Shown one piece after another: positions 17,442-56,462 of a stretch of DNA of 64,000 nucleotides (its first letter is position 1; each line of letters starts with the position of its first letter). The DNA is from a virus (lineage: Duplodnaviria; Caudoviricetes). Under the pieces are notes generated by a model. That model saw nothing but the letters and a program-made list of their open reading frames with translations, searched no databases and was not told the origin of the DNA. The stretch lies in the IMG/VR virus record IMGVR_UViG_3300020576_006124, positions 1 through 64,000 of that record; one strand, given 5' to 3'. A program made the translations under genes and the position numbers.

Positions 17442-18093
17442 TCTAATAACGCACTTATGTTTCAGTTCTGAGGCTTTCTACAAAGTAAATCAAATAGCAT
17501 ATAATAGATACCAAGAGCCTTATAGAAATTACCATAATAACTCTCACCTAGAGGATATGATTAAAGGACTTTATCAATACTTCCCAACCTGCTGTGAAGA
17601 TGATCAAAGTTTATTCGAGATATATCTTGATATCATTTTCCATGATTTCTACTATGTTCCTGGAAGTTCTTTCTCTAATGAGTACAGATCCTTTCAGAGT
17701 GCTGTAGACTACAACAATATTCTTAATAAGGATCAGTATTTAAAGTCTTTAAGATTAACCTACAATCCCTTCTTAAGTGGAATTAAATTAACGAGGAATC
17801 ACTCAGGGGCAATTACCAAAAGGCAACAAATTCTATTAGACCTAGACCTTTTAATTTTAGCTGCGCCAAAACATGAGTATCTTGCCTATCTTCTAAATAT
17901 CAGGGATGAGTATTTTACGTACTCACAAGAAGAGTTTGACAATGGAAGAATAAAATTTTTGAAAAAATATTTATCTAAAAGGAAAATCTTCGTTACTAAA
18001 GAAATGGAACATCTTAATCCTATAGCCCGAGAAAATATGAAAAAGGAGCTAGAAACTCTGAGAGTTGTTTATGATAAAGACATTAACATTTGA
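17425..18093 (+). CDS. HD-superfamily metal-dependent phosphohydrolase
   Basis: R.YHN..H, IIFHDFYY, NE..S, DLDL.ILA, Y...IR.EY, GR..FL. Confidence 0.85.
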   Translation: MMMGDNLITHLCFSSEAFYKVNQIAYNRYQEPYRNYHNNSHLEDMIKGLYQYFPTCCEDDQSLFEIYLDIIFHDFYYVPGSSFSNEYRSFQSAVDYNNILNKDQYLKSLRLTYNPFLSGIKLTRNHSGAITKRQQILLDLDLLILAAPKHEYLAYLLNIRDEYFTYSQEEFDNGRIKFLKKYLSKRKIFVTKEMEHLNPIARENMKKELETLRVVYDKDINI

Positions 18094-18643
18094 GGAGTTC
18101 TTTACTAAGAATAAAGAACTAGCTGACAAAATTGCTAGTCACTTTTATTACACTTCCTGTAGAAAAGAAGAATTTGAAAGAGGGGATATAATCAGTTTTG
18201 CTTACTCTGGTTTAAATAGGGCATACAAAAAGTTTTTACAGGGGACTCACTTCGAAACTAATGTTTCCTATTACGTAAAGAAGGAAATATTGGAGGGATG
18301 TAGAAAAGAATCCATATCAAGAAAAATGGGTTTTGTTTATTCCTTAGATTATATCTCAACCAAAGATGACTATGAAACCCATTTTGAAGATGAAGAATTA
18401 ACTTTAGAAGATAAAACTGCTGTTAACCTTTTAGAAAATGTTCTTCTTGACTATGATCTAAAAACATTACTAACTCAGGAGGAATCTTTTCTTATTGAGA
18501 AAATTTGTATGGAAGAGGAAACAATGAGAGAAGTAACTAGAAAATACGACTTACCTTCTTACAATTATACAAATAGAAGATACAACTCAGCATTAAAAAC
18601 TATCAAAGATTCTTTTTATGACTTGGAACATTTCAAGAATTAA
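18065..18643 (+). CDS. sigma-70-family RNA polymerase sigma factor
   Basis: Region 2 (IA..F....E..DIISFAYSGL.RA.KKF..G..F) and region 4 HTH (LT.EE......TMREV). Confidence 0.7.
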   Translation: MFMIKTLTFEEFFTKNKELADKIASHFYYTSCRKEEFERGDIISFAYSGLNRAYKKFLQGTHFETNVSYYVKKEILEGCRKESISRKMGFVYSLDYISTKDDYETHFEDEELTLEDKTAVNLLENVLLDYDLKTLLTQEESFLIEKICMEEETMREVTRKYDLPSYNYTNRRYNSALKTIKDSFYDLEHFKN

Positions 18644-34724: not shown

Positions 34725-35495
34725 ATGAATGTACTTGTCATTGGAAGTGGTGCCGTTGGAAGTTTTGCAGTTAATTATATTGCAAGACTTTCTAGGACTC
34801 AGAATTTACCATTAGCTCTCGTTTTAGCAGACTTTGATACTGTCGAAGAGAGAAATGTTTATAGTCAGGACTTTACCTTTGAGGATATAGGAAAGAATAA
34901 GGCAGAAGTTACTGCTAAGAAAGCCTCAGAGTACATTAACAGCATAACTGCCTTTCCTGAGAAGGTAACCCCTGAAAACTTAAAGTCTTTACATGAAGAG
35001 TATAACTTCGATTGTATAGTTATCACGGTAGATAACCAATTTTCCCGAGTAGTTCTTAACACAGCTGGAACCATGGGTCTAAAAATTCCAGTACTACATT
35101 CTTCCATAAACTTAAATGGTACTGGTCAAGTATCTTGGTCCTACTTTAGCTCAGCTAAAAACTGTTATAGGTCTTCTTGGCCGGAAGACCCGGATAAACT
35201 TACTGCGGAGCAGCTTACTTCTCTTATGAGCCCAGAGAAAACCTCATCTCCTCCCCCTTGTGAGTTATTCCCTTTTGTACCTCTGATTCAAACTGCCGCT
35301 ATGGAGACAGCTTTGTCCTTGAGCACCTTTATAGGAAATGACCTTCATAAGGAAGTACTAAAGGTTCTTCGGGATAAAGGTACTCCCGAAGAAACTCTCC
35401 AAAATCTACCTACTAGTACCAAAGGATTTATGCTATCGAGAATTATCTCATTTAACACTAGTACCCTAACAGATCTTTTTCACCAAGATGCCTAA
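34725..35495 (+). CDS. ThiF/MoeB/E1-family adenylyltransferase
   Basis: VLVIGSGAVGS, ADFDTVEERNV.SQ, IGKNKAE, VDN..SR; candidate catalytic Cys in PPPCEL. Confidence 0.9.
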   Translation: MNVLVIGSGAVGSFAVNYIARLSRTQNLPLALVLADFDTVEERNVYSQDFTFEDIGKNKAEVTAKKASEYINSITAFPEKVTPENLKSLHEEYNFDCIVITVDNQFSRVVLNTAGTMGLKIPVLHSSINLNGTGQVSWSYFSSAKNCYRSSWPEDPDKLTAEQLTSLMSPEKTSSPPPCELFPFVPLIQTAAMETALSLSTFIGNDLHKEVLKVLRDKGTPEETLQNLPTSTKGFMLSRIISFNTSTLTDLFHQDA

Positions 35496-37818
35496 AAAAA
35501 AGAGTAAATTCGGCAATAAGTCTAAAATTCATTCTACAGAAAGTAAAAATAATATACCACAAAAAAAAAGAAAAAACAGAAGGTACGAAGATTTGAGCTA
35601 CATCGAAGAATTTTACGGTCAAGGGAATCACGGGATGCATACAACTACTCACTACTACTCATCTAAGAAATGTAGAGTATTTGGAGTATGTGCAGAGGAG
35701 ACCCCTGATCAGATTATTTTCTGTGATGGATACTCCAACTATAAAGAGGAGGAGTTACGAAAACAACTAGCCATTCATTTCAAGTTTAAAAACTACGCTT
35801 GGCCCGATGGTACAAATTTTCAGGTTTTCATCGTACCTAAAAAGAATCTTCCTTATATTAAAAAAATCTCTTCAAATAAAAGTGTCCTTTGCTGTGCCCA
35901 TGACGGTACTAAGGCTTATTTAAAGGCACATCTCGGAATTGAATTACAGTCCTCTGATAGGGATTGGTACTGTAATCACCCACAGACAGAAAGTAGTGGT
36001 CTTCCAGCACATTTTACCTTCCCTGTAATTCAATCTCTGATTAAGCCTTACAATATAGGTTTCTCAGAAATAATGGTAAAGATTCCTATGAATCTTGCCT
36101 TCCCTGAAGGATTTACTTTCCAGGATTTATACGGAAGTTATATGGAAGCCCTTGGTTGGCATCCTCTTTCTATTGCTTTATGTAATACAATTTCTGAGCC
36201 TACTCACGAAAATATTATAAACCTTCTAGAGCAAACCTTAAAAGAGATTCAATCTAATGAGTCCTATAGTGATCTTATTAAAGATAAACTAAGTGAACCG
36301 TATAGAAACGCTATAAAAGCTCAAAAAACAGCTCGGTTCACTTTCTTTAAAGAGGATCAAGAAGTCTGGGGTAAAGCATGGGTCATTACTCGGGAAGGGG
36401 TAGCTAATGGAAGAGGGGGTGTTGGACACGCTGAGTATATGGCTGTTAGAGAAAGAAAATCTAATATCTATCAGGCATTTAGATTTGATCACCTAAGTAA
36501 CTGCAATTACTCTTCAGAGCCTTTCCTTTTAGATTATGATCTGGAACAAAACTATACCTATCAAATAGATCCAGACCTTATCATGATTGAACAGGTCAAC
36601 AGCAAGGGAGAATTAGAGTTAAAGAAACTACAGTTCATGATTAACTCTTCCTACTCTCCAAATAATAGCAGTAATGTTATCTACGGAAGGGGGAACAGTG
36701 GTTCAACCGGGGCAGCTTATCATCCCTCTGTAACCGCAAACCCCTTAGAAGGAAGTCTAGACGCTTACGAACTTGCTAAAACACTATTAGCAGAAAATGA
36801 GAATAGTAAAATTACTAGGTCTCTTTCTTCTAATAGCCCTTTGACTGTAACCCACTTCAACGTTGAAGATACTGCAGTAGAAGCTCAGTCGGGAATGTTC
36901 GATTTCGTTAACTCTACTGGGTACAATCTATTTGAAAATATGATGGAAGATTATCTTGATCCTAAAGACCTTCCGAATTTACTCCCACTATATTATATAG
37001 ATGTAGACACTCAGATTTCCGATTTGAGTACCCTTGATAAAATCTACCAATCCTTTGCTTTGGGTTCAGTGAACGAAAGTGGTCTAAGGTCTGTATTTAA
37101 GTCTATAAAGGATAGTGTTTTCTATGAAACATGCTCTCCTGCTTCTTTTTTATGGGTAATGGATGAGAATCTCCCTAGAGAGATTAACTCTGAGTTTTTG
37201 AGAGTTCTTACTAAAGAGTGGGAAGAAGTTGCCTTTCCTTATATCTTAAAAGAATCTTTTGGGCCAAGTAATTCCTCAGAATTCTTTAACCTAAAGAAAT
37301 CTATTACCTCTATTCCTAATATTAAGTCAATCAAGGCTTCTACGGAGATCTTAGAGTCTAAGCTGGGAACTAACTTTATTGCATTTTTGCATACAAAAAA
37401 TCATAGACCTGACTTACTCTCATGTTGGAGTTCTCCAATGAGTCCTAAGTCTCAATTTGAGTATTTTAAATTATCTGTAGTTAATGGCTTCTTGAAACTT
37501 TTAGACACCTTTAGTGAATCATTAATTAGTGACTGTGAAGACCTATCCTGTACTACAGAAGATATAATAAATTCTTATTATGATAATTTTAGAGCAATAC
37601 TTGCTAATATGCCTGGTAAATACCGGATAGAAGATAGTGAAGAGTTTGTATCCAATCTTGGTAACGCTGCTAGGTATTATGATGTATATTATTTTGCTGT
37701 AGCTGTTTTAGCCCTGTCTGATAATCCAGATATATGTTCCCTAAGACATAAACTAGCAAGCATTCTTCATATCTTAATTTTTAATGTAACTGATTTTTCC
37801 ACTACAGGAGTTTGTTAA
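35488..37818 (+). CDS. large hypothetical protein overlapping the E1 gene
   Basis: 776-aa ORF with basic N-terminal tail; no family recognised. Confidence 0.7.
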   Translation: MPKKKSKFGNKSKIHSTESKNNIPQKKRKNRRYEDLSYIEEFYGQGNHGMHTTTHYYSSKKCRVFGVCAEETPDQIIFCDGYSNYKEEELRKQLAIHFKFKNYAWPDGTNFQVFIVPKKNLPYIKKISSNKSVLCCAHDGTKAYLKAHLGIELQSSDRDWYCNHPQTESSGLPAHFTFPVIQSLIKPYNIGFSEIMVKIPMNLAFPEGFTFQDLYGSYMEALGWHPLSIALCNTISEPTHENIINLLEQTLKEIQSNESYSDLIKDKLSEPYRNAIKAQKTARFTFFKEDQEVWGKAWVITREGVANGRGGVGHAEYMAVRERKSNIYQAFRFDHLSNCNYSSEPFLLDYDLEQNYTYQIDPDLIMIEQVNSKGELELKKLQFMINSSYSPNNSSNVIYGRGNSGSTGAAYHPSVTANPLEGSLDAYELAKTLLAENENSKITRSLSSNSPLTVTHFNVEDTAVEAQSGMFDFVNSTGYNLFENMMEDYLDPKDLPNLLPLYYIDVDTQISDLSTLDKIYQSFALGSVNESGLRSVFKSIKDSVFYETCSPASFLWVMDENLPREINSEFLRVLTKEWEEVAFPYILKESFGPSNSSEFFNLKKSITSIPNIKSIKASTEILESKLGTNFIAFLHTKNHRPDLLSCWSSPMSPKSQFEYFKLSVVNGFLKLLDTFSESLISDCEDLSCTTEDIINSYYDNFRAILANMPGKYRIEDSEEFVSNLGNAARYYDVYYFAVAVLALSDNPDICSLRHKLASILHILIFNVTDFSTTGVC

Positions 37819-41565: not shown

Positions 41566-42072
41566 CTACAGTAATTGATTAAGCATCCTATTTTCTTTAA
41601 AGTAGTCATCTACTATTTTATCTGCTTCAGATTTATTCTTTACGTAAGAGATATTTATAATAAAAAGAGTTATACCTTTATTTATACAGAGATTTGATCT
41701 TATTTTATCATTCTTTTGAACTTTTTTTAAATTCTCCTTCCCATAGATATTTTCTCTATGAACAGGGCCATTAACCTCAATTGCTATTTTATATTTAGGG
41801 ATATAAATGTCTAGTTCATACCCTATTTGCTTTCTGTCGTTCTTAAAAATTCTTATATCCGGTCTAACTCTTTCTCTTATACTCTCATAGATAAACTCTT
41901 CTGATTTACTTCTAGTTGTTTTTTTAAAGTGGTGGACTTTTAAGAGACACGCATAACAACAAAAGTTCTCTTCAACCCACCAGAACTTTTTCTTTAGTGA
42001 TTTAGGGATATTAGTTTCTGAAGAAAAACTAATTTTACAAGAAGAACAAACTCGAATCATGACTCTTATCAA
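41566..42072 (-). CDS. PD-(D/E)xK (Vsr/DUF559-like) endonuclease with Zn finger, putative homing endonuclease
   Basis: SKSEE, ELDIYIP..KIAIEVNG..H, D..R...C...GI.L; antisense, overlapping the start of the RNAP-like gene. Confidence 0.8.
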   Translation of the reverse strand: MIRVMIRVCSSCKISFSSETNIPKSLKKKFWWVEENFCCYACLLKVHHFKKTTRSKSEEFIYESIRERVRPDIRIFKNDRKQIGYELDIYIPKYKIAIEVNGPVHRENIYGKENLKKVQKNDKIRSNLCINKGITLFIINISYVKNKSEADKIVDDYFKENRMLNQLL

Positions 42073-43168
42073 ACAGATTTCTAGTCCCTCTCACATTTTA
42101 AATACGGAACTACCTAAAACTATTAGAGTAGGTAATGAAGAAATTTCAATTCCTCAATGCCTCTTACATAAGTCAGTACAGTTCTCTCTTACTAAAGAGG
42201 GGATTCTAGAAACTTGTTTTATTGCACCCACTCTAGCTTACCTTCTAAAAGCAGCCTCATCAGAATCCCCACAAAAAGACTTTCAACTAGCTAGAAAGTT
42301 TCTTCTTTCTGCTATTCAAGACCTAGTAGAAAGTCAGCTTATTTCTGGCAGAGTACACCAAGGATATATGGGATTGGTTCAAGTTAATTCCCATTTAGAC
42401 ACAAATAGAGTAGCCCTTTCTAAAAGAACCTGGGAAGTCCTTTGTGAAGAGAGTAAAAAATGGAAAGACTGTTCTAAGATTATAGCCATTAGGTATCCCA
42501 ATTTAGGGCCCAAAACTACTTCCGTCCTGGAACTTCAAATTATAGAGGACTCTCCTTTAGGACTATCATTTGGAGCTTCTGATGGTATTTTAGATGGAGT
42601 ATATGTACATCCTACTACAATAAAAGAGAATTTTGAGGGTGATGCAGATGGAGATACTTTATTTTTAATACCCTTTGAAAATAATGGGAGCTTTATTGCA
42701 CCCCTTGCAAATTCTAGATCTAATGATTTGTTTTTAACAGAGAATCTTAGAGAAGAAATGCTTAAGAAGTTTTCTAGGTGTGATAGGTCAGATTCTAGAC
42801 TTAGCAATCATCTTTCTACTTGCTTTGATCCAGGTCTGATTGGTCTTGCTACCTATATAGTTAGAAGCAGATTAAGGAGATATGCTACAGCCAATAAATG
42901 TACTCTTAAGAAAGCATGGGATGCGGTAGCTCCAGAGGGACTACAATTAATAGAATCTGTCATGGATCTTAAAAAAGGAAATATGACACCCCAACAAGTA
43001 GATTCTCTTGTTAAACAAATAGAAAAAGAGAGTCTTCAGGTTGCAACTATAAGAAATTCTGGGGATCCTTATCACTCACTTATTACATCTAGCACATTAC
43101 CAGAAAACTTCCCATTAGTTTATCCTACTCTTTCGTCATTTGTGGAGCAGGCTTTTGGAACCCATTAA
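42059..43168 (+). CDS. RNA polymerase beta'-like catalytic double-psi barrel subunit
   Basis: IRYPNL and VHP....NFEGDADGD (DxDGD Mg-binding motif). Confidence 0.8.
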   Translation: MTLIKQISSPSHILNTELPKTIRVGNEEISIPQCLLHKSVQFSLTKEGILETCFIAPTLAYLLKAASSESPQKDFQLARKFLLSAIQDLVESQLISGRVHQGYMGLVQVNSHLDTNRVALSKRTWEVLCEESKKWKDCSKIIAIRYPNLGPKTTSVLELQIIEDSPLGLSFGASDGILDGVYVHPTTIKENFEGDADGDTLFLIPFENNGSFIAPLANSRSNDLFLTENLREEMLKKFSRCDRSDSRLSNHLSTCFDPGLIGLATYIVRSRLRRYATANKCTLKKAWDAVAPEGLQLIESVMDLKKGNMTPQQVDSLVKQIEKESLQVATIRNSGDPYHSLITSSTLPENFPLVYPTLSSFVEQAFGTH

Positions 43169-43430
43169 AATATTAGTATCTGGTACCTTTATTATGGGAG
43201 AGAATAATCCCATTTGCATTTGTGGTTGCCCCCTAGAGAAGTTTACTGGATTTATACCTAGTCAGCTCTCTATGAAAAATTCTAGGGAGGTTGACTTACT
43301 TTCTATCCCAAATGATCAGTTTTCAGGAGAAACCTTTTGCCCACTTTGCGAAAGGATTCATACGTATACTTTTGAGATTGACAGAAGCACATCTATTCCT
43401 TTTTTAAAAGCCACTCCACTAGAAAAATGA
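43140..43430 (+). CDS. Zn-ribbon protein between the RNAP-like genes
   Basis: CICGCP...FCPLC. Confidence 0.55.
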   Translation: MWSRLLEPIKILVSGTFIMGENNPICICGCPLEKFTGFIPSQLSMKNSREVDLLSIPNDQFSGETFCPLCERIHTYTFEIDRSTSIPFLKATPLEK

Positions 43431-44767
43431 AAATAGCAACCAGAAACCATTTTACCACAAACTTTGTTAGGGAAGTAGTATCTTACTCTGGTACGGATTA
43501 CTATGGAGTGGAAATTGCTATACCACCTGTTTTTACCTATGATCAAAAAGAATACACACTAGAGGCACCACAAAAGATTTTAACTTCTTACAAGTTTAAT
43601 CCATTTAAAGATACAGGAAAGTCTTATCATATCTTCAGAAAGTCATTCTATGAATCCCTCTCTAGATTTCCTAAATTAAACTTAGATAATCTGGGGAAGA
43701 AGCATACTCTAGCAGAGTTCCTTTACTCATCCATTGTTTATTTTAGGCCTACATCCACTTTCGAATCTTATCTTTCTAAGCTTCCTTTTTCTCAAAGGGG
43801 TGAAGAGTTATCTTCTACTCTTATTACCTTAGCGGATAAAATTAAAAAAGACTACTCTCTCTCTTTAGACCTCTGGGCTGTACCTAAAAGAGAAGTTGGT
43901 AGTCTTATCCATATATCAGATGAAAACGGTTATTCTAGAATATCAAAGTTAATTTCTTTTGGATACCATAAGACTTTTCCACAAGACAGAATAACCAGAG
44001 AATCTGGATCCTTGAAAGAGTCTTATCGGTACAATAATCCTAACCATTTGGGGTATAAGTTTAATGAAATTATTGCCCCCTACGTTACTATGCTGAAAGT
44101 AGCTGTTATTTTCCCTAGGGAGAATATGGCTGATGGGGGTGAGTTTTTCTCCTCTGCGATTCCTCATTTATCTACATCTTTTACTCGGGACCGAGAAGTA
44201 GATCTTTATTCTAAGGAATACCCTGAGTCTATCATAGATATAAATGTCTCTAGTACATCAATTTCTCTAAAAAGAGTTCTAAGGACTATTATAAATGAGA
44301 ATCAATATTTAATGGGTCCTCTAAGATTGGTTTTACCTGGAGGAGTAAAGGTTTGTGCAAGTTTTAATAATAACCAGGCCATAGATAAGAATAATCAACC
44401 AATTGATCTTCTACTAGATTATAGAACCTTTGTCTCTAAAGGGGCAGTAGGAACTTTAATGATGCTGCAAAAAGGATTAGGGATTTGCCCTACGGCGGAG
44501 GAAGCATTGGAGTATTTTAACTCAGGATTAAAAATGACTACTATAAAGATAGGAGCTGAAACCTTAAACGCCCTAGTAGGTCATTTACCTATTTTCAGAC
44601 CTAGTCAAAGTTACTTAACACTCAATAAGCCCGGAGTAGTAGGATTAGATATTATTTCTAGAATTGTAACGGATTCTTCTCTATATCCTCATAAAGAAAC
44701 AGAAAGAGACTACCAAGAACTCTCCAGACTTTACTCACAAATCAGAACCCATGAACTCATCAACTAA
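43427..44767 (+). CDS. RNA polymerase beta-like double-psi barrel subunit
   Basis: LKVAVI...ENMADG (cf. N.ED), GGVKV (cf. G.KG), PIDLLLDYRTFVSKG (cf. PDLI.NP....SR). Confidence 0.55.
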   Translation: MKIATRNHFTTNFVREVVSYSGTDYYGVEIAIPPVFTYDQKEYTLEAPQKILTSYKFNPFKDTGKSYHIFRKSFYESLSRFPKLNLDNLGKKHTLAEFLYSSIVYFRPTSTFESYLSKLPFSQRGEELSSTLITLADKIKKDYSLSLDLWAVPKREVGSLIHISDENGYSRISKLISFGYHKTFPQDRITRESGSLKESYRYNNPNHLGYKFNEIIAPYVTMLKVAVIFPRENMADGGEFFSSAIPHLSTSFTRDREVDLYSKEYPESIIDINVSSTSISLKRVLRTIINENQYLMGPLRLVLPGGVKVCASFNNNQAIDKNNQPIDLLLDYRTFVSKGAVGTLMMLQKGLGICPTAEEALEYFNSGLKMTTIKIGAETLNALVGHLPIFRPSQSYLTLNKPGVVGLDIISRIVTDSSLYPHKETERDYQELSRLYSQIRTHELIN

Positions 44768-46274
44768 GTCCGAAATCGTTTGTTTAGTCCCTGAGCTTTT
44801 ATTTGATCAGGCAGCGGGAATGTTAGAGAGAATTGCTTACTCTAACATTGCGGGGAACCCTGAGAGGCCCATTATTCCTCTTTTTGTAGCTCCCCCAGGA
44901 GTGGGAAAAAATGCTCTTATTAACGATCTTTTACGGAACCTAAACTCCGGACAGTTAAAAGAGAATATCATTAACTCTGGTGCAGTAAAAGCTGAAGATT
45001 ACAAAGAATGGGAGATCTTCCCCCTTAGAGTTAGCCAGAAAGATAATGTAGGTATTGCGGGGGCTTGTACAATTGTTAAGGATTCTGAGAATCAATCTTA
45101 CACCTATACTGCTCCTCCTGCCGGTTTTCCTCTTCTAAATAACCCCTCTTCCGCAAAAGGGAAAAACATCTTAATTGTCTTAGATGAGTTTGGGCAAGCA
45201 GTTCCTGCTGTTCAAAGTTTAGCCGCTAGTTATCTAGATGGAGAAATTGGGTCTGAGAGGTTTGATCCTTCTAGAGTTCTTTTAGTTATACTTACTAATG
45301 GAGTCAAAGATGGAGCGGCATCAAATATGATTCCAGCACAGATTAGAAATCGTGTAGTCATGTTCTCCCTTAAGCCAAGTATTGCCCAGTGGACTAGGGA
45401 TTTTGCTCTAAAAAATGGCATTCCAATCTCAGTTATCAGTTACCTAAACGAAAAGGGTAATTCTTATTTCTTTTTAGATACTCAGGAAGAACTAAAGAAG
45501 GTTGTAAATACCATGTCTCCCTTCCAGAGCCCTAGAAGTTGGACCACTTTTTCAAATTTGCTTTCTGCGTGTTATACTAATGAAAAACTGGAACATATTA
45601 TGTCCAAACATTGGGACTCAAAAATAAATCCAGCAGAGGATGCGGAACAAAACCTAATTAGAGCTATGGCTATAGGGGCGCTAGGTCTGGATAAGGGGAA
45701 TGATTTTATTACTTGGTTGATAGAGATATCCAAATTAGTAAGACTCTCTGATATTATTTCCGGCACCTCTAAAGATGCATCTCAAATTAGTAAAGAGAGC
45801 CATCAAAAAGTTCTATTCTATATATCCTATCAATTAAGGTCCTTTATTAATTCTATTGGGGCAGAGTTCCAGGAGTTTAGAAATTCCAAAACTGCTATAG
45901 ACCCCAAAAACCCTAATGAAGTTAGAGACCTATTTCAAGGATTTTTTAAGGGATCCGATCTAAGTACTTCAATAGACCGAGTATCTTTATGGATTATGGA
46001 CCTACTATCAAGAACTCCTAAAGATAACTTGTTTATTCTTATTCCTACTCTTAGCCTTATTTTACCTCCAACTAATCAGTTAGCTTATATGCCCATTTCC
46101 AACATTAACGAAGCTAGAAAGCTAGCTGCTTCATCAGAAACCGTAAAAAGAAATCTTGACTTTACTCTTTCTACCTGGCCAATGTCTTTTGTAGATTTAT
46201 ATAGCCTTTGTCAAGAAGGGGGAGAGAAAGATCATAATTTAGTCTTGAGTAAATACTCAAAAGAAACAAGATGA
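44751..46274 (+). CDS. MoxR-like AAA+ ATPase
   Basis: Walker A APPGVGKN, Walker B IVLDEF, sensor LTN, IRNR, SPRSW. Confidence 0.88.
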   Translation: MNSSTKSEIVCLVPELLFDQAAGMLERIAYSNIAGNPERPIIPLFVAPPGVGKNALINDLLRNLNSGQLKENIINSGAVKAEDYKEWEIFPLRVSQKDNVGIAGACTIVKDSENQSYTYTAPPAGFPLLNNPSSAKGKNILIVLDEFGQAVPAVQSLAASYLDGEIGSERFDPSRVLLVILTNGVKDGAASNMIPAQIRNRVVMFSLKPSIAQWTRDFALKNGIPISVISYLNEKGNSYFFLDTQEELKKVVNTMSPFQSPRSWTTFSNLLSACYTNEKLEHIMSKHWDSKINPAEDAEQNLIRAMAIGALGLDKGNDFITWLIEISKLVRLSDIISGTSKDASQISKESHQKVLFYISYQLRSFINSIGAEFQEFRNSKTAIDPKNPNEVRDLFQGFFKGSDLSTSIDRVSLWIMDLLSRTPKDNLFILIPTLSLILPPTNQLAYMPISNINEARKLAASSETVKRNLDFTLSTWPMSFVDLYSLCQEGGEKDHNLVLSKYSKETR

Positions 46275-47650
46275 AAGACACACTATCCAGATTCTTTCGA
46301 AGGGCGGGCGGATCTCCTGTTGTAGGAGCCGCTCTCTCTTTAAAGTGGGAAACCTCAGATATAGGAGGACCCCACCCCTTCTATATTAAAAAAGACTCTA
46401 TTATTACCAATCTTAGCTGGATAGCTAGAAAACCCACAGAGTCAGAAAAACTAAGGATAGAACAAACTCTTGCTTTTGCTGCTTATTTTTATATACTAGG
46501 GTTTTCGAAAAAAGAAAAAGGAACTCTTTTTCCTCATATAGCTTATTTATCTAAATATATTTCTACAGCTTTAATGGTATCTTTTGATCCCAACATTAAA
46601 TTTTTAATGTTAAACACCCCTAATGGACAAGAGGATTGTACTATAAATGGGACATTTTTTAAACCTTTGCAAGAAAAAGGTTTAAAAATAAGTCTTCCTG
46701 TAACTCTTAAAAAGAACCTACTATTAAATGTTAGCATGGAAGAAACTGTAGCTTCCATTAATCTTTCTGAGAAAGCTACATGGACCTACATTTATTCAAG
46801 TCTATGCCAGACATTTGACAGTGCTAAACTAGATGAGGACCTTAGAAATATCTTTATTATCCCAACAGAGAATGAAGATAGTGATCCAGACTCTGAGATT
46901 TGGAAAAATAATGTTCTTGTAAGTCTTGGTCAAGAAGAATTTACATCCGGTCAGGATGAGGAAAGAAAAAGCCAGATGACAAACTTCTTTTCTCAAATGA
47001 AAGGGGTTTGGGGTAGTCATTCTGACGGATTCTTAGATGTATTTGAAATCCCAGATCAAGAGACATCTTTTATTGATTTTAAAGATCTTCTATCTTCTAA
47101 TATAAAATCTAATCTTCATACTGATGGGGATTTTTCCTGGCAAGTAAAAAGACATGGAGAAAATTCTTCCATACCCTTAGAGCCAAGATTAATCGGAACA
47201 AAATTTAAGACTTTATTCTTTTGTACTGATACCTCTGGTTCTATGTCAAGAGAGGAGCTGATTGACTCAGCGTCTGAAACAAAGAACTTCCTTTCGTCTG
47301 ATGCTAAAACTAGTTTTATAAATATTCAATTTGATACTGATATTCAGCATGTAGCAGAATTTACCCCTTACGATTACATAGAACTCGACGATATCATTCC
47401 AAACGGTTTTAAGGGAAGAGGGGGAACTGATCTTAATAAGCTCTTTTTCTATATTGAAGATTACATCTATGATAATTCTTTATCTGTAGAAGATTTAGTA
47501 GTCGTAATCCATACAGACCTAGGTTTCGCAGTTCCTGTTGAACCTTCTTTTGGAGAAAAGATAGTTTGGGTAAGTAGATTTGAGAAGACTATGCCATATG
47601 GAACCCTTGTTCAAGTTAGAGACACGACCAAAATCCACGGGATTTATTAA
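46271..47650 (+). CDS. VWA-domain protein (DUF2201-like), MoxR partner
   Basis: MIDAS DTSGSMS, QFDT.I, GRGGTD, IHTD.G. Confidence 0.85.
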   Translation: MKDTLSRFFRRAGGSPVVGAALSLKWETSDIGGPHPFYIKKDSIITNLSWIARKPTESEKLRIEQTLAFAAYFYILGFSKKEKGTLFPHIAYLSKYISTALMVSFDPNIKFLMLNTPNGQEDCTINGTFFKPLQEKGLKISLPVTLKKNLLLNVSMEETVASINLSEKATWTYIYSSLCQTFDSAKLDEDLRNIFIIPTENEDSDPDSEIWKNNVLVSLGQEEFTSGQDEERKSQMTNFFSQMKGVWGSHSDGFLDVFEIPDQETSFIDFKDLLSSNIKSNLHTDGDFSWQVKRHGENSSIPLEPRLIGTKFKTLFFCTDTSGSMSREELIDSASETKNFLSSDAKTSFINIQFDTDIQHVAEFTPYDYIELDDIIPNGFKGRGGTDLNKLFFYIEDYIYDNSLSVEDLVVVIHTDLGFAVPVEPSFGEKIVWVSRFEKTMPYGTLVQVRDTTKIHGIY

Positions 47651-49221
47651 TACAGAGTACTTCTCCATTCCGGGATATTTACAACCTATATTAAAGTTCC
47701 CTAAAAACCACATTAATTATATAGTATCAGAGAATACGGAAGAAGCCACCTCTCTAGTTAATTATATACTAGAAAGATATCAGAACAGTATCCTGATAGG
47801 GTTTCAGATTAATAAAGACTTATACCCTGAAGAGTCTTTAATCTTCAACTATTCTTCTGAGGAAGAATTTACTTCTATGATTAGAGATATAGTCATGAAA
47901 GTAAAAGACTGTATTCTTTTAATTGATGGAATTCGGTTTCTTCCAATGAATTCTTTAAAACTTTTAAAGGCTTTAGGAATAACCGCAATAGTAGTTTCTT
48001 TGAAGGGAAGAAGAAAAATTTTTCTTGACGAAAATACCATTTTCATTAAAAGAAGAAAACTAATAAGTTACATACACCACCAAATCGGGTATATTGTACA
48101 AATAGATTCTATTTGGGGCTCTAAAAAACATTTTTTTGCTTTTTCTACTTTAAAACTCTCATCTTTCTATGATAACAATATTGAGTCTTATAGTAAAGGA
48201 GTAAGAAAGTTTGAAATAAACGGTAGAAAACTGTCCCTACTAAAATGTCTAATTTTGGAAAATTATAAAAACTATGATCACATTATCTAACGGAAAAGTC
48301 GTCCTTGAAACACAAGAGGGCAAGATTGAATTTGCTCCAGACAAAAGTCTGCAGACTATACATGTTCATGCCGAAGTAGATACTACTACTGGTAAGATTG
48401 TTAGTTATTCTCTTTCTCCTGGTAGTCAGAAAGAAATTATCGAAGAGGTTACTAAGGAGTCTACGAAATCAAAGGATACAGGGGCTAAGAAAGTCTCTGA
48501 GGAGACGGTAAGGGAAAATGATAGTCCAACAACTTCATCTTAACTTTATAAAGGACGGAGAAGACCATTATTCTGTAACTGTGCAACAGCCTGACGGATC
48601 CTTTAAAGTAGTTCCTGTAAGGGTGCCCTCTGGCTCCAGTCTGGATTTAATTCCAGCACTTGCATCAGAGGCGGTTTCTAGTCTAGATAAAGCTATCCCA
48701 GACTTATTTACTAGCTTAAAAGAGCTCTCATCTATAGATCTTTCCTCTATAGATGAAAAGTATGAAAAGAGTGTCTTAGGAAATCCGATCTCTAATCCAT
48801 TGAAAGCTAAAGTGGAGGAACTGGTAGGAAAGTTACAATGGCCAGCCATTAGGAACTTAGAAACTTATACTAATAAAGAAGCTATCGTACTACTAAAACT
48901 CTTACAGATTAAACTAGGAGAATAAGAATGACAGTTTGTTTACAGGCTGTATGTCAAGTAATTAATAATAATTACTTTCTGAAGGATTTGGATACTGGAG
49001 AAAGGTATCCAGCAGTCTTCTTAGAAGAGATTACTCCAGGAACAGAGGGACTATTCATAGGAACCTTCTGTTCCGGAATAGTCAACGTCTCCAAAAGAGA
49101 TGTGAGAGAATTTATTAATCCTTTTTACGAGGAGGATGTAATCTTACTCGGCTCCGAATTTTTTGCTGAGAACACCCTTCCATTTGATTTAACTACACTA
49201 TATGAAACTATCCCCTCTTGA
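47580..49221 (+). other. hypothetical genes (47580 possibly a degenerate RecA-fold, 48274, 48518, 48928)
   Basis: 47580 has Walker-B-like ILLIDGI but no Walker A. Confidence 0.45.
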
Positions 49222-50275
49222 AACTTTTGAAAAAGCCAAAGGGAACTTATCTAATGCTATTATAGGGGAGCTTGAAAAGGCCAGAATAGCTTTTTCTAAA
49301 AGAAGTGGTCCCTACCTAAAATGGTTTCCAGATATTGATCCAGATGATAACGCCCTAGTCTTTCCCTCTCTTTATGGAGATGATAAAAATACTGTAACTA
49401 AAAGTCTAGTAGACTTTACAGAAGGTTTAGGGGTTATAGCTGGAAATCCTAATGCAGGTAAAAGTTCGGTAATAATCTCCCTTATTCATGGCCTACTATC
49501 CCAACAAAATGATGTAGTCGTAGTAGATATATCTTATGATGATGGCTACTCCTACAGATATTTACAACACCTTTGTTTTCTTACAGGTCTTGTGTATAGT
49601 GAGGTTAGTAACTATTCTCTTCTAAGCCCAGAAAAGAAACAGGTTTACGACAAAGCTGATAAGCACCTAAAATCCATAATTCAAAGTGAAACATTCTATC
49701 TTTTTGGTCCTAGTTTAAAAGTTGATACTGAAGAAAGACCTATAACTCTCAGGGTTGATCAGCTTAGCCACATCCCCTCTTTATTTACTTTTCTTCGAAA
49801 GATCCATCCAGATAAAAAAATAGTAGTCTTTATCGACGCTCTTAATGATATAGTATTTGACAGTGTAGCCAACTCAGATCTAACCAAAGATGACATGGTC
49901 ATCACTACACTCTCCAAATCCTGCATAGAGAACAAACTTGTCTGTATGCTGAGTACCCATTTAAGGAAAAACAAAGACGATATTTCCATCGAGGATATTA
50001 AAGGATCCAAAACTTTAGAGTATGCAACTAAGGTTGTATACCTCGTTAGAAACATGAGAAGAGAGGGGGTAGAAAATTGTCCTAAGGTAAACATTAATGG
50101 CTATCTAATAGACCCTCTTATACTCCAAGTAGCTAAATCGAAAGTCTCTAGTTTCCAGACCAATATAGTTTTTGGGATAGATAGTTCAAGATGTAGACTT
50201 TATCCTGTAACTTTAGAGGACTACAATAAGGTTAATAAGGACTTTTATAATTATCTTAAGTATAAAACAAAATGA
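49202..50275 (+). CDS. DnaB-like (SF4) replicative helicase
   Basis: AGNPNAGKS, VFID, STHLRK, DIKGSKTLEY, VAKSK. Confidence 0.82.
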   Translation: MKLSPLETFEKAKGNLSNAIIGELEKARIAFSKRSGPYLKWFPDIDPDDNALVFPSLYGDDKNTVTKSLVDFTEGLGVIAGNPNAGKSSVIISLIHGLLSQQNDVVVVDISYDDGYSYRYLQHLCFLTGLVYSEVSNYSLLSPEKKQVYDKADKHLKSIIQSETFYLFGPSLKVDTEERPITLRVDQLSHIPSLFTFLRKIHPDKKIVVFIDALNDIVFDSVANSDLTKDDMVITTLSKSCIENKLVCMLSTHLRKNKDDISIEDIKGSKTLEYATKVVYLVRNMRREGVENCPKVNINGYLIDPLILQVAKSKVSSFQTNIVFGIDSSRCRLYPVTLEDYNKVNKDFYNYLKYKTK

Positions 50276-51686: not shown

Positions 51687-52605
51687 CTATCATTTAATTG
51701 AATATGAGCTAGGGTCTATAGTCAATAATTCTTCCCACGCTGACAATATCAAAATAAAATGTAATCATTGTGATAAGAAAGCCCTCTACTTAAAATCAGA
51801 CACACTTCAATATAACTGCTTTGGTTGTGGCAGGCATGGAAAATTAGCTCTTGACTCCCCAAGTACTCCTACCAAAAAAGAGATTGATCAAGGATTACAG
51901 ATAAAGATCTTACTTTATCTCATAAAAAACTCAGAGTTATCCCAAGAGCACTCCTTAGAGTTACTAGAAAGAAGAATCTTTAGACCTAATAGATTCTTAC
52001 TTAGGTCTATACCCTTTAATGTTTCGAAGATTCTCTCAGAGAAATTCTCTTCTAGAGAACTTAGATCCGCTGGACTCCTAAATGAAGGAGGAAATCTAAT
52101 ATCCCAGTTCTCATATGGGAATCTACTTATACCCTTTATAAGCCAGGGAGTAATAAAGGGATTCCAAGTAAAGATAAACAAAAGGGACACATCTGACAAA
52201 TTCAAGTACCTTATGTTTCCGGGGTCTAAGGTAGGTCACCATTTCTATACTACTCTCCCCTCAGCCCCAAATAACTACATTATAGTTACAGAATCACCTC
52301 TTAAAACTATATCAGCTTTAGATAATGGATACAACTGTGCTGGGTTTGTAGGCATAAATCCTGCAGACAAAGCTATATTAGATCTTAAGCAGTTTCTCTT
52401 TAGATCGAAATGTAACACCTATTTAATCTATGATTCATCAGAATCTGACTTAGTAGATTCAAATCTGAGATCTGCTCAGGAAAGATTTATTCTTAATTTA
52501 GGGAGAAAAGTACAGATAAAATCCCTCCCACTATTAAAATACTCTAAGATGGATTTAGATAAATATCTTTTTATAAAAGGCAACTTAGATGATATTATCA
52601 CATAG
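51676..52605 (+). CDS. DNA primase (Zn finger + TOPRIM)
   Basis: CNHC...YNCFGCG, LLIPF, KYL, IVTES, YD, KMDLD. Confidence 0.82.
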   Translation: MRFDYHLIEYELGSIVNNSSHADNIKIKCNHCDKKALYLKSDTLQYNCFGCGRHGKLALDSPSTPTKKEIDQGLQIKILLYLIKNSELSQEHSLELLERRIFRPNRFLLRSIPFNVSKILSEKFSSRELRSAGLLNEGGNLISQFSYGNLLIPFISQGVIKGFQVKINKRDTSDKFKYLMFPGSKVGHHFYTTLPSAPNNYIIVTESPLKTISALDNGYNCAGFVGINPADKAILDLKQFLFRSKCNTYLIYDSSESDLVDSNLRSAQERFILNLGRKVQIKSLPLLKYSKMDLDKYLFIKGNLDDIIT

Positions 52606-52618
52606 GAGATAAGTCCCC

Positions 52619-52855
52619 ATGGAAAATAACTTAGAAAAAAAGCCCTTAAGTTGCCCCCACTGCAAAAGCAAAGATACTGTTTTATCAACTGATGGAGAAA
52701 TGTGGTGGGGCGCCTGTTGGGATTGTCAAATGGAAGGACCCATAGTTGAAACTGACTTAGAGGCCCTTAAAACTTGGAATAATCTTTCTCAGTTAAGATC
52801 TTTTAAAGATAACATTCAAAAAAAAATCTTAGATAACAAAATCAGAGAACTTTAG
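52619..52855 (+). CDS. Lar-family restriction-alleviation Zn-ribbon protein
   Basis: L.CPHC...C..C...GP......A...WN. Confidence 0.7.
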   Translation: MENNLEKKPLSCPHCKSKDTVLSTDGEMWWGACWDCQMEGPIVETDLEALKTWNNLSQLRSFKDNIQKKILDNKIREL

Positions 52856-52877
52856 GTTTTGGTCTTAGGAGAATAGC

Positions 52878-53177
52878 ATGAGGGAGAACAGGACATTGAG
52901 GTCGGGAGAACCATGCCGACACCCTGGGTGCCTAAGTCACATTTCGCACTCTTGCGAGTGCTGTGGGCGCGTAGGTGGGAGAAGCCTACGAGACCTTTTG
53001 CTGCATGAACGGGTTGATGTTAGGTGGTACGGTCAAAATGACTACTTGGGGCCATATGTATTCGAGGTGGACCTACATGAAGGCGACGTATTTTGTTCGC
53101 AGGGGCTCATTGTTGGGTCTATTCGCGACGTGGCCTCATGGCGATTACATGTGCCAAAAGAGCTGGCGGACCTATGA
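52878..53177 (+). CDS. Zn-finger protein with C-terminal 'D..SWR' domain
   Basis: PCRHPGCLSHISHSCECCGR; RDVASWRL. Confidence 0.6.
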   Translation: MRENRTLRSGEPCRHPGCLSHISHSCECCGRVGGRSLRDLLLHERVDVRWYGQNDYLGPYVFEVDLHEGDVFCSQGLIVGSIRDVASWRLHVPKELADL

Positions 53178-53263
53178 CGAGCAGGAACAAACGCCTACCC
53201 CATGTAAGACCAGGACGCTGGGCCGCGTTTGGGTCAAGCCCCTGGGAGTGAGAAGAAAGAACG

Positions 53264-54193
53264 ATGAATATTGGAACAAGTTGGCATAGCTACCCAAAGA
53301 TTTACAACGTAGGCCACGCCTATCTGGAAGGTTTTTTTGATGGATCGTCCTGGTTGTCGGTTGAAGAAAAGGTAGATGGATCACAGTTTAGCTTTGGTGT
53401 ATTCGGGGGCGAGATTAAGTGTCGCTCGAAAGGCCAGGAATTGATTGTTGAGCGTCCCGAAAAGATGTTTGCCCGCGCGGTGGAGTCTGTCAAAGAGATT
53501 GCCCATCTGCTTCGGGATGGTTGGACCTATCGGGGTGAGTATCTACAATCCCCCAAGCACAACACTCTCAAGTATGATCGCGTGCCGAACCTACACATCA
53601 TCGGTTTCGACGTGTCTCCCACCGAAGAGCAATATTTGATCTACGATGACAAAACTGAGGAGTTTGCTCGTATCGGGCTTGAGGTTGTTCCTCGCATCTG
53701 GCAAGGCACGCACCCTGACCCCAAATCTCTCATGGATACCGAGAGCATTCTCGGCGGATCGAAGATTGAGGGGCTTGTGTTCAAGCGACATGCGAACCCA
53801 CTGTACGGGCCCGACAAAAAGGTGTTGCTTGCCAAGCACGTTTCGGAGGCGTTCAAGGAGGTCCATAGCAAGGAGTGGAAGAGAACTAACCAGACCGGAA
53901 AGGACTTCGTGGGCGCTCTTGCCGAACGGTATTGCGCTGAGGGCCGATGGGCCAAAGCCGTCCAGCGGCTCACGGAATCAGGCGTGGCGACGAACACACC
54001 ACAAGACATTGCAGCACTGATCGCTGAGGTTCAGCGTGACATTAAAGATGAGTGCCGCGAAGAGATCATCAAAGAGTTACTTTCCTATGCCTGGCCCCAT
54101 ATTGCCCGAGCATCTGTGCGCGGTTTGCCGGACTGGTACAAGAACCGACTCATGGAATCCGCCATTGGGTCCATGCCCCAGGAGGTCGAATGA
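53264..54193 (+). CDS. Rnl2-like ATP-dependent RNA ligase
   Basis: Motif I EEKVDGSQ, RGE, GFDV, IEGLVFK, AKHV; YPKI N-terminus. Confidence 0.85.
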   Translation: MNIGTSWHSYPKIYNVGHAYLEGFFDGSSWLSVEEKVDGSQFSFGVFGGEIKCRSKGQELIVERPEKMFARAVESVKEIAHLLRDGWTYRGEYLQSPKHNTLKYDRVPNLHIIGFDVSPTEEQYLIYDDKTEEFARIGLEVVPRIWQGTHPDPKSLMDTESILGGSKIEGLVFKRHANPLYGPDKKVLLAKHVSEAFKEVHSKEWKRTNQTGKDFVGALAERYCAEGRWAKAVQRLTESGVATNTPQDIAALIAEVQRDIKDECREEIIKELLSYAWPHIARASVRGLPDWYKNRLMESAIGSMPQEVE

Positions 54194-54967
54194 AGATCAC
54201 CGTCCGCCAGGCATTCAAGAAGGCGTATGGGCCGATCCCAGATGGGGCTACGTGCCATTTGGCAAACTGGCCCGGTCCTACTTTGCCCCAATTTATGAAC
54301 ATTGAGCCTACCATATGGGAAGACGGCTGGCCTGAATCCCTGGGAACACGCGAGGACGGTAGCCCTGGAGTAATGGAATATCCCTTTGGCCCCGACATCT
54401 CAGATCGCGACGCAGAAGCCTTCCGGGGTTTATTCGGGGACGATTACGACAAAGCCCTAGATGGGCTGTTGGGGGCTGAATGACTTGGTCCGAGGCGATT
54501 GCCACTTTGGGGGTGGTTGGTCTATTTGGACTCCTTGTATGGACAAGCCACAGGGAGAACATGGCAAGATATGCTCTCTTACAGAAGACCGTGGAACTAG
54601 AGGAGATATTGAAGGATGCACCAAAGCAGGTGAGCGTCGGCAAGAAGTGCATCGCACGAGGAGTGATACGCAAAGTAGCACCACCGGTAACATTGGAGGA
54701 TGAGAATGTCTAAGCAGAGTGTGGAGGTGCCCCGTGGCTAAACACGACCTCAAGATCAGGCAGATCACCGCTGTAAGCGTTCCAGAGAACTGCTTTACGC
54801 AATGCGAGGCGATCCTATTTGCCTTGACCGACGATGGCAGGCTCTTTCACACAACCAACAGGGACATGGGGGCCGTTTGGTACGAGGTAGGGCAGCCTTA
54901 CCTGACGGTCGATGAAAGAGACGCCATAGCCCCCCTCATGGCTGAGCTGGAGGTGCCCCGTGGCTAA
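54190..54967 (+). other. three small genes in the GC-rich block (54190-54483, 54480-54713, 54734-54967)
   Basis: GGAGG RBS before 54190 and 54734; ATGA coupling at 54190 and 54480. Confidence 0.6.
54722..54967 (+). repeat. 20-bp direct repeat flanking one gene
   Basis: TGGAGGTGCCCCGTGGCTAA at 54722-54741 and 54948-54967. Confidence 0.9.
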
Positions 54968-55381
54968 GAAGCTGTACGGGCAAGTCGGGCGCAACGGGGA
55001 GTTGCATTGGGTGGAAGCCTCTTCCGCTAAGTGGATCGCCGGGAGAATGTGGTTTGTGTACAATGCCCCCAACTGGGTCTTTTCCTATGAGAGTCCTGGG
55101 GGCTTTATACACTTTTCATAATAAGTACTCCTGGAAGTGTTATCAACTAACACCAAAAATCCTTAGTTCTACTCAGAAGTTAAAACTAAATATTAATGGA
55201 GAATGCCAAAACGGAGAAGTAGTTAGCACAGAAGGGATTTTCAAGATCATTACTGATGGAAATTTGCTCTTATCCCCTGAAGATATTGAATCTTGGAGAC
55301 TTGTTTTTTCTTCTACGACTTAACCACTAAAAAGTAGTGTAAAAATTTAGAGGATTTCTTATACTTCTACAGAACCGGAAA

Positions 55382-55918
55382 ATGGAAATTAAATCAAAGC
55401 ATTTATCTAAGGTAAAGGACCCAGGAATTCTCTCTCTTATTTATTTGTCTCTAGGTGTATTAGAAAAAAGCTTAGAAACAGACTCCTACCTTAAAGAGAC
55501 TGGTTTTTTAATTAGAGATTACCGATATATTGGGACTAGATTAATCTACAAAAATTGCCATATAGCAGAGAGAAAATCTATTGGATGGGTGCTTTTACCT
55601 AAAATTAACAAGATCTTATTTGACATCTGTAAAGATCTAGGTTTATATAAATATTTTAACCCCGAGCGAACTTTCCTAAGAAATTTTTTAAATTCTATAA
55701 TCCAGTTCAGCATATTACATAATTGGAACTCTCCCACTACCTTTTTAGATTCTATAGAACCAGGAGATTACATAGAAATAAAAACTGAAGAGAGATCCTA
55801 TAACGTTACCGTCCTAAGGGAAAGTATAGAAATGGAATTCATCCTCACTGATGAAAATATCATTCTTCAGCTCCAAGACATCGTTTCATGGAGAAAAATT
55901 TATGTTCGACCCAAATAA
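55382..55918 (+). CDS. hypothetical protein, paralogue of 57345
   Basis: LF...DLG.KYF, W.....FLD, ILTDENI....D...WRK.Y shared. Confidence 0.7.
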   Translation: MEIKSKHLSKVKDPGILSLIYLSLGVLEKSLETDSYLKETGFLIRDYRYIGTRLIYKNCHIAERKSIGWVLLPKINKILFDICKDLGLYKYFNPERTFLRNFLNSIIQFSILHNWNSPTTFLDSIEPGDYIEIKTEERSYNVTVLRESIEMEFILTDENIILQLQDIVSWRKIYVRPK

Positions 55919-56462
55919 ATTATGGTTTACCTCTGATACTCATTTTGGACATAGAGGGATTCTTAAACATCAGCAGACTAGATCACACTTTTCCTCTCTA
56001 GAGGAAATGGATGAGACACTTATTTTTAATTGGAATAGTCGGGTTAAGCCTGGGGATTGTATCTTTCATTTAGGGGATTTTTTTCTGTGTTCTTCTGATC
56101 GAGCTAAATCTATTCTGTCTAGATTGAATGGAGAAATACATCTAATTGAGGGTAATCACGACTCAAATGCCCATACTTTAAGAAAAAAATTAGCCAGCTA
56201 TAGACAGATAGCTGAAGTAAACGTTGATGACCCAGACAGGAAAGTGTGTATTATCTGCTGCCACTACTGTATGAGAACCTGGAACAAATCACACCACGGT
56301 TCTTGGCATATTCACGGGCACTCTCATGGGTCTCTACAGCGGCCTGAGGGACCTGTTCTAGATGTAGGAGTAGACTGCCATAATCTTTCCCCTATTTCGT
56401 ACTGGGAACTGAAAGAATTTATGCTGGGAAGAACATTCCCCATAGTAGATCATCACAAATAG
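55851..56462 (+). CDS. calcineurin-like metallophosphoesterase (likely start 55902)
   Basis: TSDTHFGH, HLGDF, GNHD, HGHSHG. Confidence 0.9.
   Translation: MKISFFSSKTSFHGEKFMFDPNKLWFTSDTHFGHRGILKHQQTRSHFSSLEEMDETLIFNWNSRVKPGDCIFHLGDFFLCSSDRAKSILSRLNGEIHLIEGNHDSNAHTLRKKLASYRQIAEVNVDDPDRKVCIICCHYCMRTWNKSHHGSWHIHGHSHGSLQRPEGPVLDVGVDCHNLSPISYWELKEFMLGRTFPIVDHHK

Follow-up and report, generated by a model that had tools for sequence, protein, structure and literature searches.

How few residues does an RNA polymerase (RNAP) of the beta'/beta type need? The catalytic core of the cellular enzyme has a mass of ~400 kDa. The question is raised by three overlapping open reading frames (ORFs) on the + strand of DNA of an uncultured phage, from the IMG/VR record IMGVR_UViG_3300020576_006124. 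We analysed the first 64 kb of this 197,239-bp record (CheckV completeness 85%), hereafter called the window. The ORFs A (42059..43168, 369 amino acids (aa), 41 kDa), Z (43140..43430, 96 aa, a Cys4 zinc ribbon) and B (43427..44767, 446 aa, 51 kDa) had been interpreted in an initial annotation as a minimal split two-barrel RNAP. They are present as described there, the quoted motifs are found at the positions given and the gene overlaps are real, Z and B having an ATGA in common. Together, A and B comprise 815 residues and 92 kDa (103 kDa including Z). That cellular beta and beta' each exceed 1000 residues is correct for Escherichia coli (1342 and 1407 aa), and A (369 versus 1407 aa) and B (446 versus 1342 aa) have about a quarter to a third of these lengths. 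Our results support the reading as a reduced split two-barrel RNAP with a beta'/Rpb1-like catalytic subunit A and a beta/Rpb2-like catalytic subunit B. A and B, perhaps with Z, probably constitute an RNA-making two-barrel enzyme of ~92 kDa.

Fold and conserved residues of the two subunits

A small N-terminal region of strands and helices (residues 1–95) precedes the double-psi beta-barrel of A (DPBB-A, approximately residues 100–209), which bears a DxDxD metal-binding loop. According to the model, A is a beta'/Rpb1-like protein. RYPNLGP (nt 42491–42511) is located inside DPBB-A, and GDADGD (nt 42638–42655) is the putative Mg2+-binding loop. The pattern of this loop in the family is G-D-[A/G/C]-D-[G/S]-D; GD[A/G/C]DGD thus takes the place of NADFDGD in cellular RNAPs. 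In an alignment of 25 A sequences (21–60% identity to A), W135, P147, L149, D195, D197, D199, K237, T265, E299, D303 and K306 are invariant, and at least 90% of the sequences retain R145, P151, G194, G198 and R305. The motifs are not chance resemblances: homologues that share only 21–30% identity have them unchanged or almost so.

The C-terminal helices of A comprise a candidate bridge helix (residues 260–279) and a subsequent hairpin resembling a trigger loop (283–306/311–333), the tip of which (E..MD.RKG) contains the invariant E299, D303 and K306 as well as R305. These assignments result from partial fold alignments, in which residues 34–276 of the model were placed on residues 219–828 of Sulfolobus A' and residues 94–304 on residues 340–1081 of yeast Rpb1. 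Residues 260–276 come to lie near Sulfolobus A' 810–828, the bridge-helix region, and residue 304 falls on Rpb1 1081 in the trigger loop. For Rpb1 we take the bridge helix to be at ~810–845 and the trigger loop at ~1070–1100.

A double-psi fold in the gene at 43427, on which the initial annotation depended, is indeed present. The model of B contains the second barrel (DPBB-B) at approximately residues 219–394, and this barrel carries conserved basic residues. About 350 of the 402 residues of the model align to beta, and the fold-level alignment extends from beta residue 126 to 1244. The N-terminal half of beta has its counterpart, in strongly reduced form, in residues 1–165 of B, and a C-terminal helix is formed by residues 423–445. 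Homologues of B were gathered from the DNA adjoining A homologues; in 14 B sequences (18–58% identity), K154, G179, R188, R191, E192, D236, E291, G306, K308, K338, G339, R391 and D408 are invariant. The key motifs of B are NMADG (D236; nt 44123–44137), PGGVK (K308; nt 44336–44353), SKGA (K338; nt 44435–44446) and R391. Comparison with E. coli beta suggests that NMADG corresponds to NFEDS, D236 being the counterpart of D814 with the Glu lost, and PGGVK to HGNKG, with K308 in the position of K1065. Likewise, PIDLLLD would match PVDIVLN, and SKGA would match PSRMN with K338 equivalent to R1106.

Between the strand of the ED motif and the GxK strand, the model of B has a beta-rich insert of ~50 residues (250–298), located where beta has its flap. 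A sandwich-barrel-hybrid (flap) insert inside the barrel of beta is a mark of the multisubunit clade (PMC7824862), and the insert of B is a candidate for it. The architecture of A/B is closer to beta/Rpb2 plus beta'/Rpb1 than to single-subunit two-barrel enzymes.

A family of adjacent gene pairs and its neighbours

A/B represents a family that is named in no database. A, Z and B have no match in Pfam (E≤0.1), PHROGs, NCBIfam or PADLOC, none of 50,697 GenBank phage records matched A or B in tblastn, and the A profile found only noise and no solved structure among the sequences of the PDB. A set of 23 two-barrel families has been described (PMC10770324); the accessible part of the supplementary tables of that work holds no entries with DADGD, DGDGD or DCDGD motifs. 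No description of a beta' plus beta pair of ~370 + 450 aa was found in the literature searched. To our knowledge, A/B is the smallest pair of the beta'/beta type.

A word-indexed homologue search returned only 3–4 relatives per query. An A profile built from three sequences retrieved 35 proteins at E≤1e-3 when run with HMMER, index-free, over 1.84 billion representative proteins. Their lengths range from 104 to 455 aa (338–455 aa for full-length members), and none is fused or longer. Downstream DNA was available for 16 non-redundant loci. In every one of them B comes after A in the same orientation, usually with abutting or overlapping stop and start codons; one locus has 1.6 kb of small ORFs in between. 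Throughout the family each locus encodes one A and one B chain, B always being a separate ORF. This genomic adjacency (16 of 16 loci) suggests that the barrels of A and B may share a single active site. In locus L004, six small tandem ORFs (62–109 aa; 890–2250) are located between A and the Z/B genes. Several of them end in a similar K-K-A-x-x-I-L-M-R motif, and they resemble an array of small paralogues.

The zinc ribbon is less constant. Seven loci (L002, L004, L005, L008, L009, L015, L017) contain, between A and B, a Z-like gene with the Cys pattern and an FxGxxP motif, the motif common to these genes being F-T/S-G-F/L-I/L-P; in L009 the Z-like stretch is embedded in a 250-aa protein. L019 has a 77-aa Cys4 ORF without FxGxxP at this place, and in L006, L007, L010, L012, L016, L018 and L020 a Z-like gene is absent between A and B. 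Z is 46% identical to its L002 counterpart. The public gene call begins Z at Met19, but the longer form is more likely because the L002 homologue is similar upstream of Met19. In the ESM Atlas, the model of Z is poor and its search yielded no more than small proteins without names and weak hints of zinc ribbons; the Atlas model of B is also poor and the corresponding search returned nothing usable.

Immediately downstream, B overlaps by 17 nt with the gene of a MoxR-type AAA+ ATPase (44751..46274, + strand, 507 aa; phrog_1297 'ATPase', 3e-38), which in turn overlaps by 4 nt with that of a VWA-domain protein (DUF2201; 46271..47650, + strand, 459 aa; PF09967 DUF2201, 7e-8). The ATPase also directly follows B in L002, L005, L008, L009, L010, L015, L017/L030 and L018, and in 8 non-redundant loci other than the window the gene after the ATPase encodes the VWA protein. 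The order B, MoxR, VWA holds in most loci, though not in L006, L012 and L016. Relatives of the ATPase in GenBank phages are annotated as MoxR ATPase or gp24-like. A specific association of MoxR/VWA with A/B is ruled out, since phages that have no A/B, among them rV5-like and RaK2-like ones, also encode MoxR homologues. For this reason, the two proteins more likely act together in assembly or remodelling than as subunits of the polymerase. The VWA protein is likely the partner of the ATPase, and the overlapping genes probably serve to assemble or remodel the A/B complex.

Upstream of A/B, a 776-aa protein without a family match is encoded at 35488–37818, directly after a ThiF/E1-like gene. The same arrangement is found in at least six related loci (L005, L006, L007, L016, L018, L019). 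As this protein is always coupled to the ThiF gene, it was ruled out as a polymerase subunit and probably belongs with the E1-like system.

A/Z/B are part of a long + strand gene run that codes for nucleotide-metabolism and replication functions, and the G+C content is ~0.34–0.38 for most 2-kb intervals of the window. On the - strand, a homing/HNH-type endonuclease gene (41566–42072; phrog_559, 1e-15; PvuRts1I-like N domain) overlaps the start of A by 14 nt with its 5' end; a reverse gene of 162 aa is present at this place in L002 and L003. A G+C-rich island at 52001–56000 (0.45 versus ~0.34 elsewhere) is free of tRNA genes and includes an RNA ligase gene (53264–54193; PF09414, 4e-14). Beyond the window, at 80023–82056 of the genome (L026 17023–19056), the ORF of the ribonucleotide reductase small subunit comprises 677 aa. 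Its matches to the reductase at residues 1–221 and 542–672 flank an insert of ~320 residues, which suggests an intein or an inserted domain.

A scan of 185,579 species genomes gave a single match, a 34-kb contig (L030, CAYLNC010000003.1) in a metagenome-assembled bin of Candidatus Saccharibacteria. Its scores for A, B, MoxR and VWA are identical to those of L017. L030 is probably a phage contig, and probably from the phage that L017 represents; it is of little help in identifying the host.

Proposed role and alternative explanations

We propose that A and B associate with their two barrels face to face. The loop G-D195-A-D197-G-D199 of A would hold the catalytic Mg2+. B would contribute D236, the Asp of the beta ED motif, to the active centre, and its residues K308, K338 and R391 would hold the RNA 3' end and the phosphates of the nucleoside triphosphate. 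Helix 260–279 of A may act as bridge helix and the hairpin 283–333 with its invariant tip as trigger loop. The enzyme assembled in this way would copy a DNA template into RNA. Since the catalytic residues of both subunits are invariant across a very divergent family, an active nucleotidyl-transferase can be argued for.

The genome encodes further proteins of this kind. A motif scan revealed two more DxDGD proteins of 1215 aa (161132–164779, NDADGD) and 743 aa (185902–188133, ADCDGD), which we regard as two other two-barrel candidates. Neither has a PHROG match; the 743-aa protein has weak homologues in the genomes G001 and G002. In hhalign comparisons of A/B with both proteins the probability remained below 1%, and the best, non-significant local alignments fall on the DxDGD and GxK...KG motifs. 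Both proteins were ruled out as complementary fragments of A/B. All three DxDGD loops (GDADGD, NDADGD, ADCDGD) have a small residue between the first two Asp, a position that Phe occupies in cellular RNAPs. The resemblance hints at a common origin, although the hhalign results are not significant.

Given the two other candidates, A/B is one of several polymerases; it is neither the smallest two-barrel polymerase nor the only one of this phage. Several polymerases are also used by phage N4, for different gene classes. On balance, we lean towards A/B as a non-virion transcriptase that serves one temporal gene class or a subset of genes alongside the two other candidates.

A number of points weigh against this interpretation. 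Most of the clamp is lost from A, and the last ~100 residues of beta are lost from B. In the B family the Glu of the ED pair is replaced by Ala or Leu, and a counterpart of the second canonical beta lysine (K1073) was not identified in B. Neither A nor B belongs to the Pfam families RNA_pol_Rpb1_* or RNA_pol_Rpb2_*. The aligned ranges fit at the level of the fold. In the comparison with RpoB and RpoC proposed in the initial annotation, the profiles of A and B stayed below a probability of 1% when hhalign was run against rpoC and rpoB of E. coli. Because homology to RNAPs is undetectable at the sequence level, the residue equivalences are derived from fold ranges and inspection. With regard to transcription, scans for sigma-70-type promoters and terminators between 39.8 and 48.6 kb remained at background level. 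A candidate late-promoter motif, RACTCTATWW, is not enriched (2 in the window versus 4 expected), and no specific promoter was found. Moreover, the two other DxDGD proteins and a sigma-like gene make a third transcriptase look redundant. Finally, the DnaB-like helicase gene downstream and the lack of a recognisable primase in three genomes are also compatible with priming. The sigma-70/ECF-like protein mentioned here (18065–18643) is only weakly recognised (phrog_351, 4e-6; TIGR02937, 2.7e-5, below the cut-off; no Pfam match). In the related locus L015, a Sigma70_r4 gene is located 7 kb upstream of A.

The last of these points leads to the alternative that survives best, namely that A/B, with Z as a template-reading ribbon, is a replicative primase. 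It would be an RNAP core cut down for the synthesis of short primers on single-stranded DNA, in a phage lineage without a DnaG-type or archaeo-eukaryotic primase and with A/B near a DnaB-like helicase. We consider this unlikely, but it deserves serious attention. Five Pfam families (DNAG_N, Toprim_2, Toprim_4, Prim-Pol, DNA_primase_S) have no match in the genomes G000, G001 and G002 (85%, 95% and 94% complete), and control genomes do respond. However, such an absence in Pfam is compatible with a primase that has diverged, and because of their relatedness the three genomes effectively represent one observation. The phage encodes its own DNA polymerase (68022–70124 of the genome; phrog_17, 9e-56), and in G000, G001, G002 and L030 the helicase gene, encoded on the same strand as the A/B block, lies 1.5–3.8 kb downstream of it. 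Yet early phage regions often mix transcription and replication genes, and no helicase was seen in the available DNA of the distant members (L012, P0038 contig). Transcription could be covered by the two other two-barrel candidates, leaving A/B for priming. Without the large clamp in A or beta's C-terminal region in B, RNA-exit and clamp elements are minimal, as would fit a primase. On the other hand, a trigger-loop-like element and a bridge helix appear to be kept, and these would suit processive synthesis. Furthermore, we know of no two-barrel enzyme that works as a dedicated primase, which also counts against this explanation. Priming by multisubunit RNAPs has, nevertheless, already been suggested for primase-less jumbo phages of the phiKZ type (PMC7824862).

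In the window, the stretch 48928–50275 contains the gene of the DnaB-like helicase (49202–50275, 357 aa; phrog_243, 5e-9) and, before it and overlapping with it, a conserved gene of 97 aa. Both genes recur downstream of the A/B block in L006, L010, L030 and G001. DnaB_C has no match above the Pfam cut-off anywhere in the 197-kb genome. That A/B, with or without Z, is a primase that evolved from a cell-type RNAP core in a phage clade without the known primase types thus remains a doubtful proposition in our view. If true, it would be the first dedicated two-barrel primase and an extant case of the connection that has been proposed between the enzymes of transcription and those of replication.

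Less probable still is that A/B is the catalytic core of a larger RNAP, whose other subunits are too divergent to be recognised, so that the enzyme would not be truly minimal. The non-virion RNAPs of phiKZ and AR9 set the precedent with four beta/beta' fragments and a fifth subunit (PMC7598289; PMC7824862). A larger complex would agree with the joint occurrence of Z, MoxR and VWA with A/B, with a conserved gene of ~240–255 aa just upstream of A in distant members, and with the fact that most ORFs of the genome have no annotation. Nevertheless, both halves of each subunit are represented, B covering beta 126–1244 and A covering Rpb1 from ~33 to the C-terminal region. No neighbour except MoxR/VWA is conserved across the whole family, and MoxR homologues are present in many phages without A/B. 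The search of the remaining genome for additional fragments, which the initial annotation had called for, also speaks against further pieces, since the A and B profiles match nothing else in the 197 kb. A/B, with or without Z, looks like a self-contained core.

With respect to the template, the fit of A/B to DNA-dependent multisubunit RNAPs is much closer than to RNA-dependent RNAPs, and PolD is absent from the matches listed. Both results favour RNA synthesis on DNA and make it very unlikely that A/B is an RNA-dependent RNAP of the QDE-1/RDR kind or a DNA polymerase resembling archaeal PolD. A relic that has become inactive or been re-purposed, i.e. a structural or regulatory pair that kept the fold and lost polymerisation, would account for the lost residue of the ED pair and the extreme divergence of the sequences, but is scarcely credible, as three Asp and the basic residues are invariant at 21–30% identity, a pattern expected under selection for catalysis.

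Relation to known two-barrel polymerases

The two-barrel RNAPs described from phages include the split enzymes of phiKZ and AR9, YonO, gp66 of crAss phages and gp64/gp96 of P23-45. In the non-virion RNAPs of AR9 and phiKZ, beta and beta' are each cut into an N- and a C-terminal half (PDB 7s00, 7ogp; PMC7598289, PMC9209446). The division in A/B is different: A spans the counterparts of both beta' halves and B those of both beta halves. AR9 and phiKZ enzymes need a fifth subunit and comprise well over 2000 residues, in contrast to the 815 residues of A/B with one chain per subunit. No subunit of the fifth type was recorded among the conserved neighbours, to which this examination was confined. 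The reduction is evident in individual regions. Residues 1–209 of A cover what takes ~400 residues in chain d of AR9, the N-terminal beta' pieces of AR9 and plastids using 400–500, and residues 165–401 of B cover what chain C of phiKZ spans in ~580 residues. No similarity between A/B and these enzymes was found at the sequence level. A/B differs in its gene order, beta' then beta, from the cellular RNAP core and its relatives in nucleocytoplasmic large DNA viruses and poxviruses; alpha or omega genes were not noted near A/B.

YonO from the Bacillus prophage SPbeta is a processive DNA-dependent RNAP of ~100 kDa without trigger-loop homology (PMC5467207). Hence, a two-barrel enzyme of the size of A/B can be a processive RNAP. 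Both are phage enzymes of similar total mass (~100 kDa versus 92 kDa, or 103 kDa with Z), in which only the catalytic residues are recognisable from the sequence. The term 'minimal' in the initial annotation holds in so far as no extra pieces were found, but only in a relative sense, because A plus B is about as large as YonO and the genome also encodes the 743-aa DxDGD protein. YonO is, however, set apart by its description as one chain of a clade resembling RNA-dependent RNAPs (PMC7824862), whereas A/B consists of two chains and appears to keep a trigger-loop-like hairpin. A single polypeptide of the YonO kind was not found in the A family, no member of which exceeds 455 aa among 1.8e9 proteins. 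The proteins gp64/gp96 of the Thermus phage P23-45 (PDB 8h2m/8h2n, 8f5m; PMC10770324) match A/B much more weakly than beta'/beta do, and each consists of one chain, in which the beta-like barrel precedes the other.

A/B adds a lineage to the known two-barrel polymerases of phages. Counterparts of beta 126–1244 and of beta' from the region before the barrel to the trigger loop appear to be packed into 815 residues and two chains. The smallest workable size of a beta'/beta-type enzyme bears on how such polymerases arose, and A/B would offer a minimal, manageable system in which to study how an active site of the multisubunit type is built and works. For the biology of the phage, the finding raises the questions of why one phage should have three two-barrel enzymes and whether one of them primes replication without a primase.

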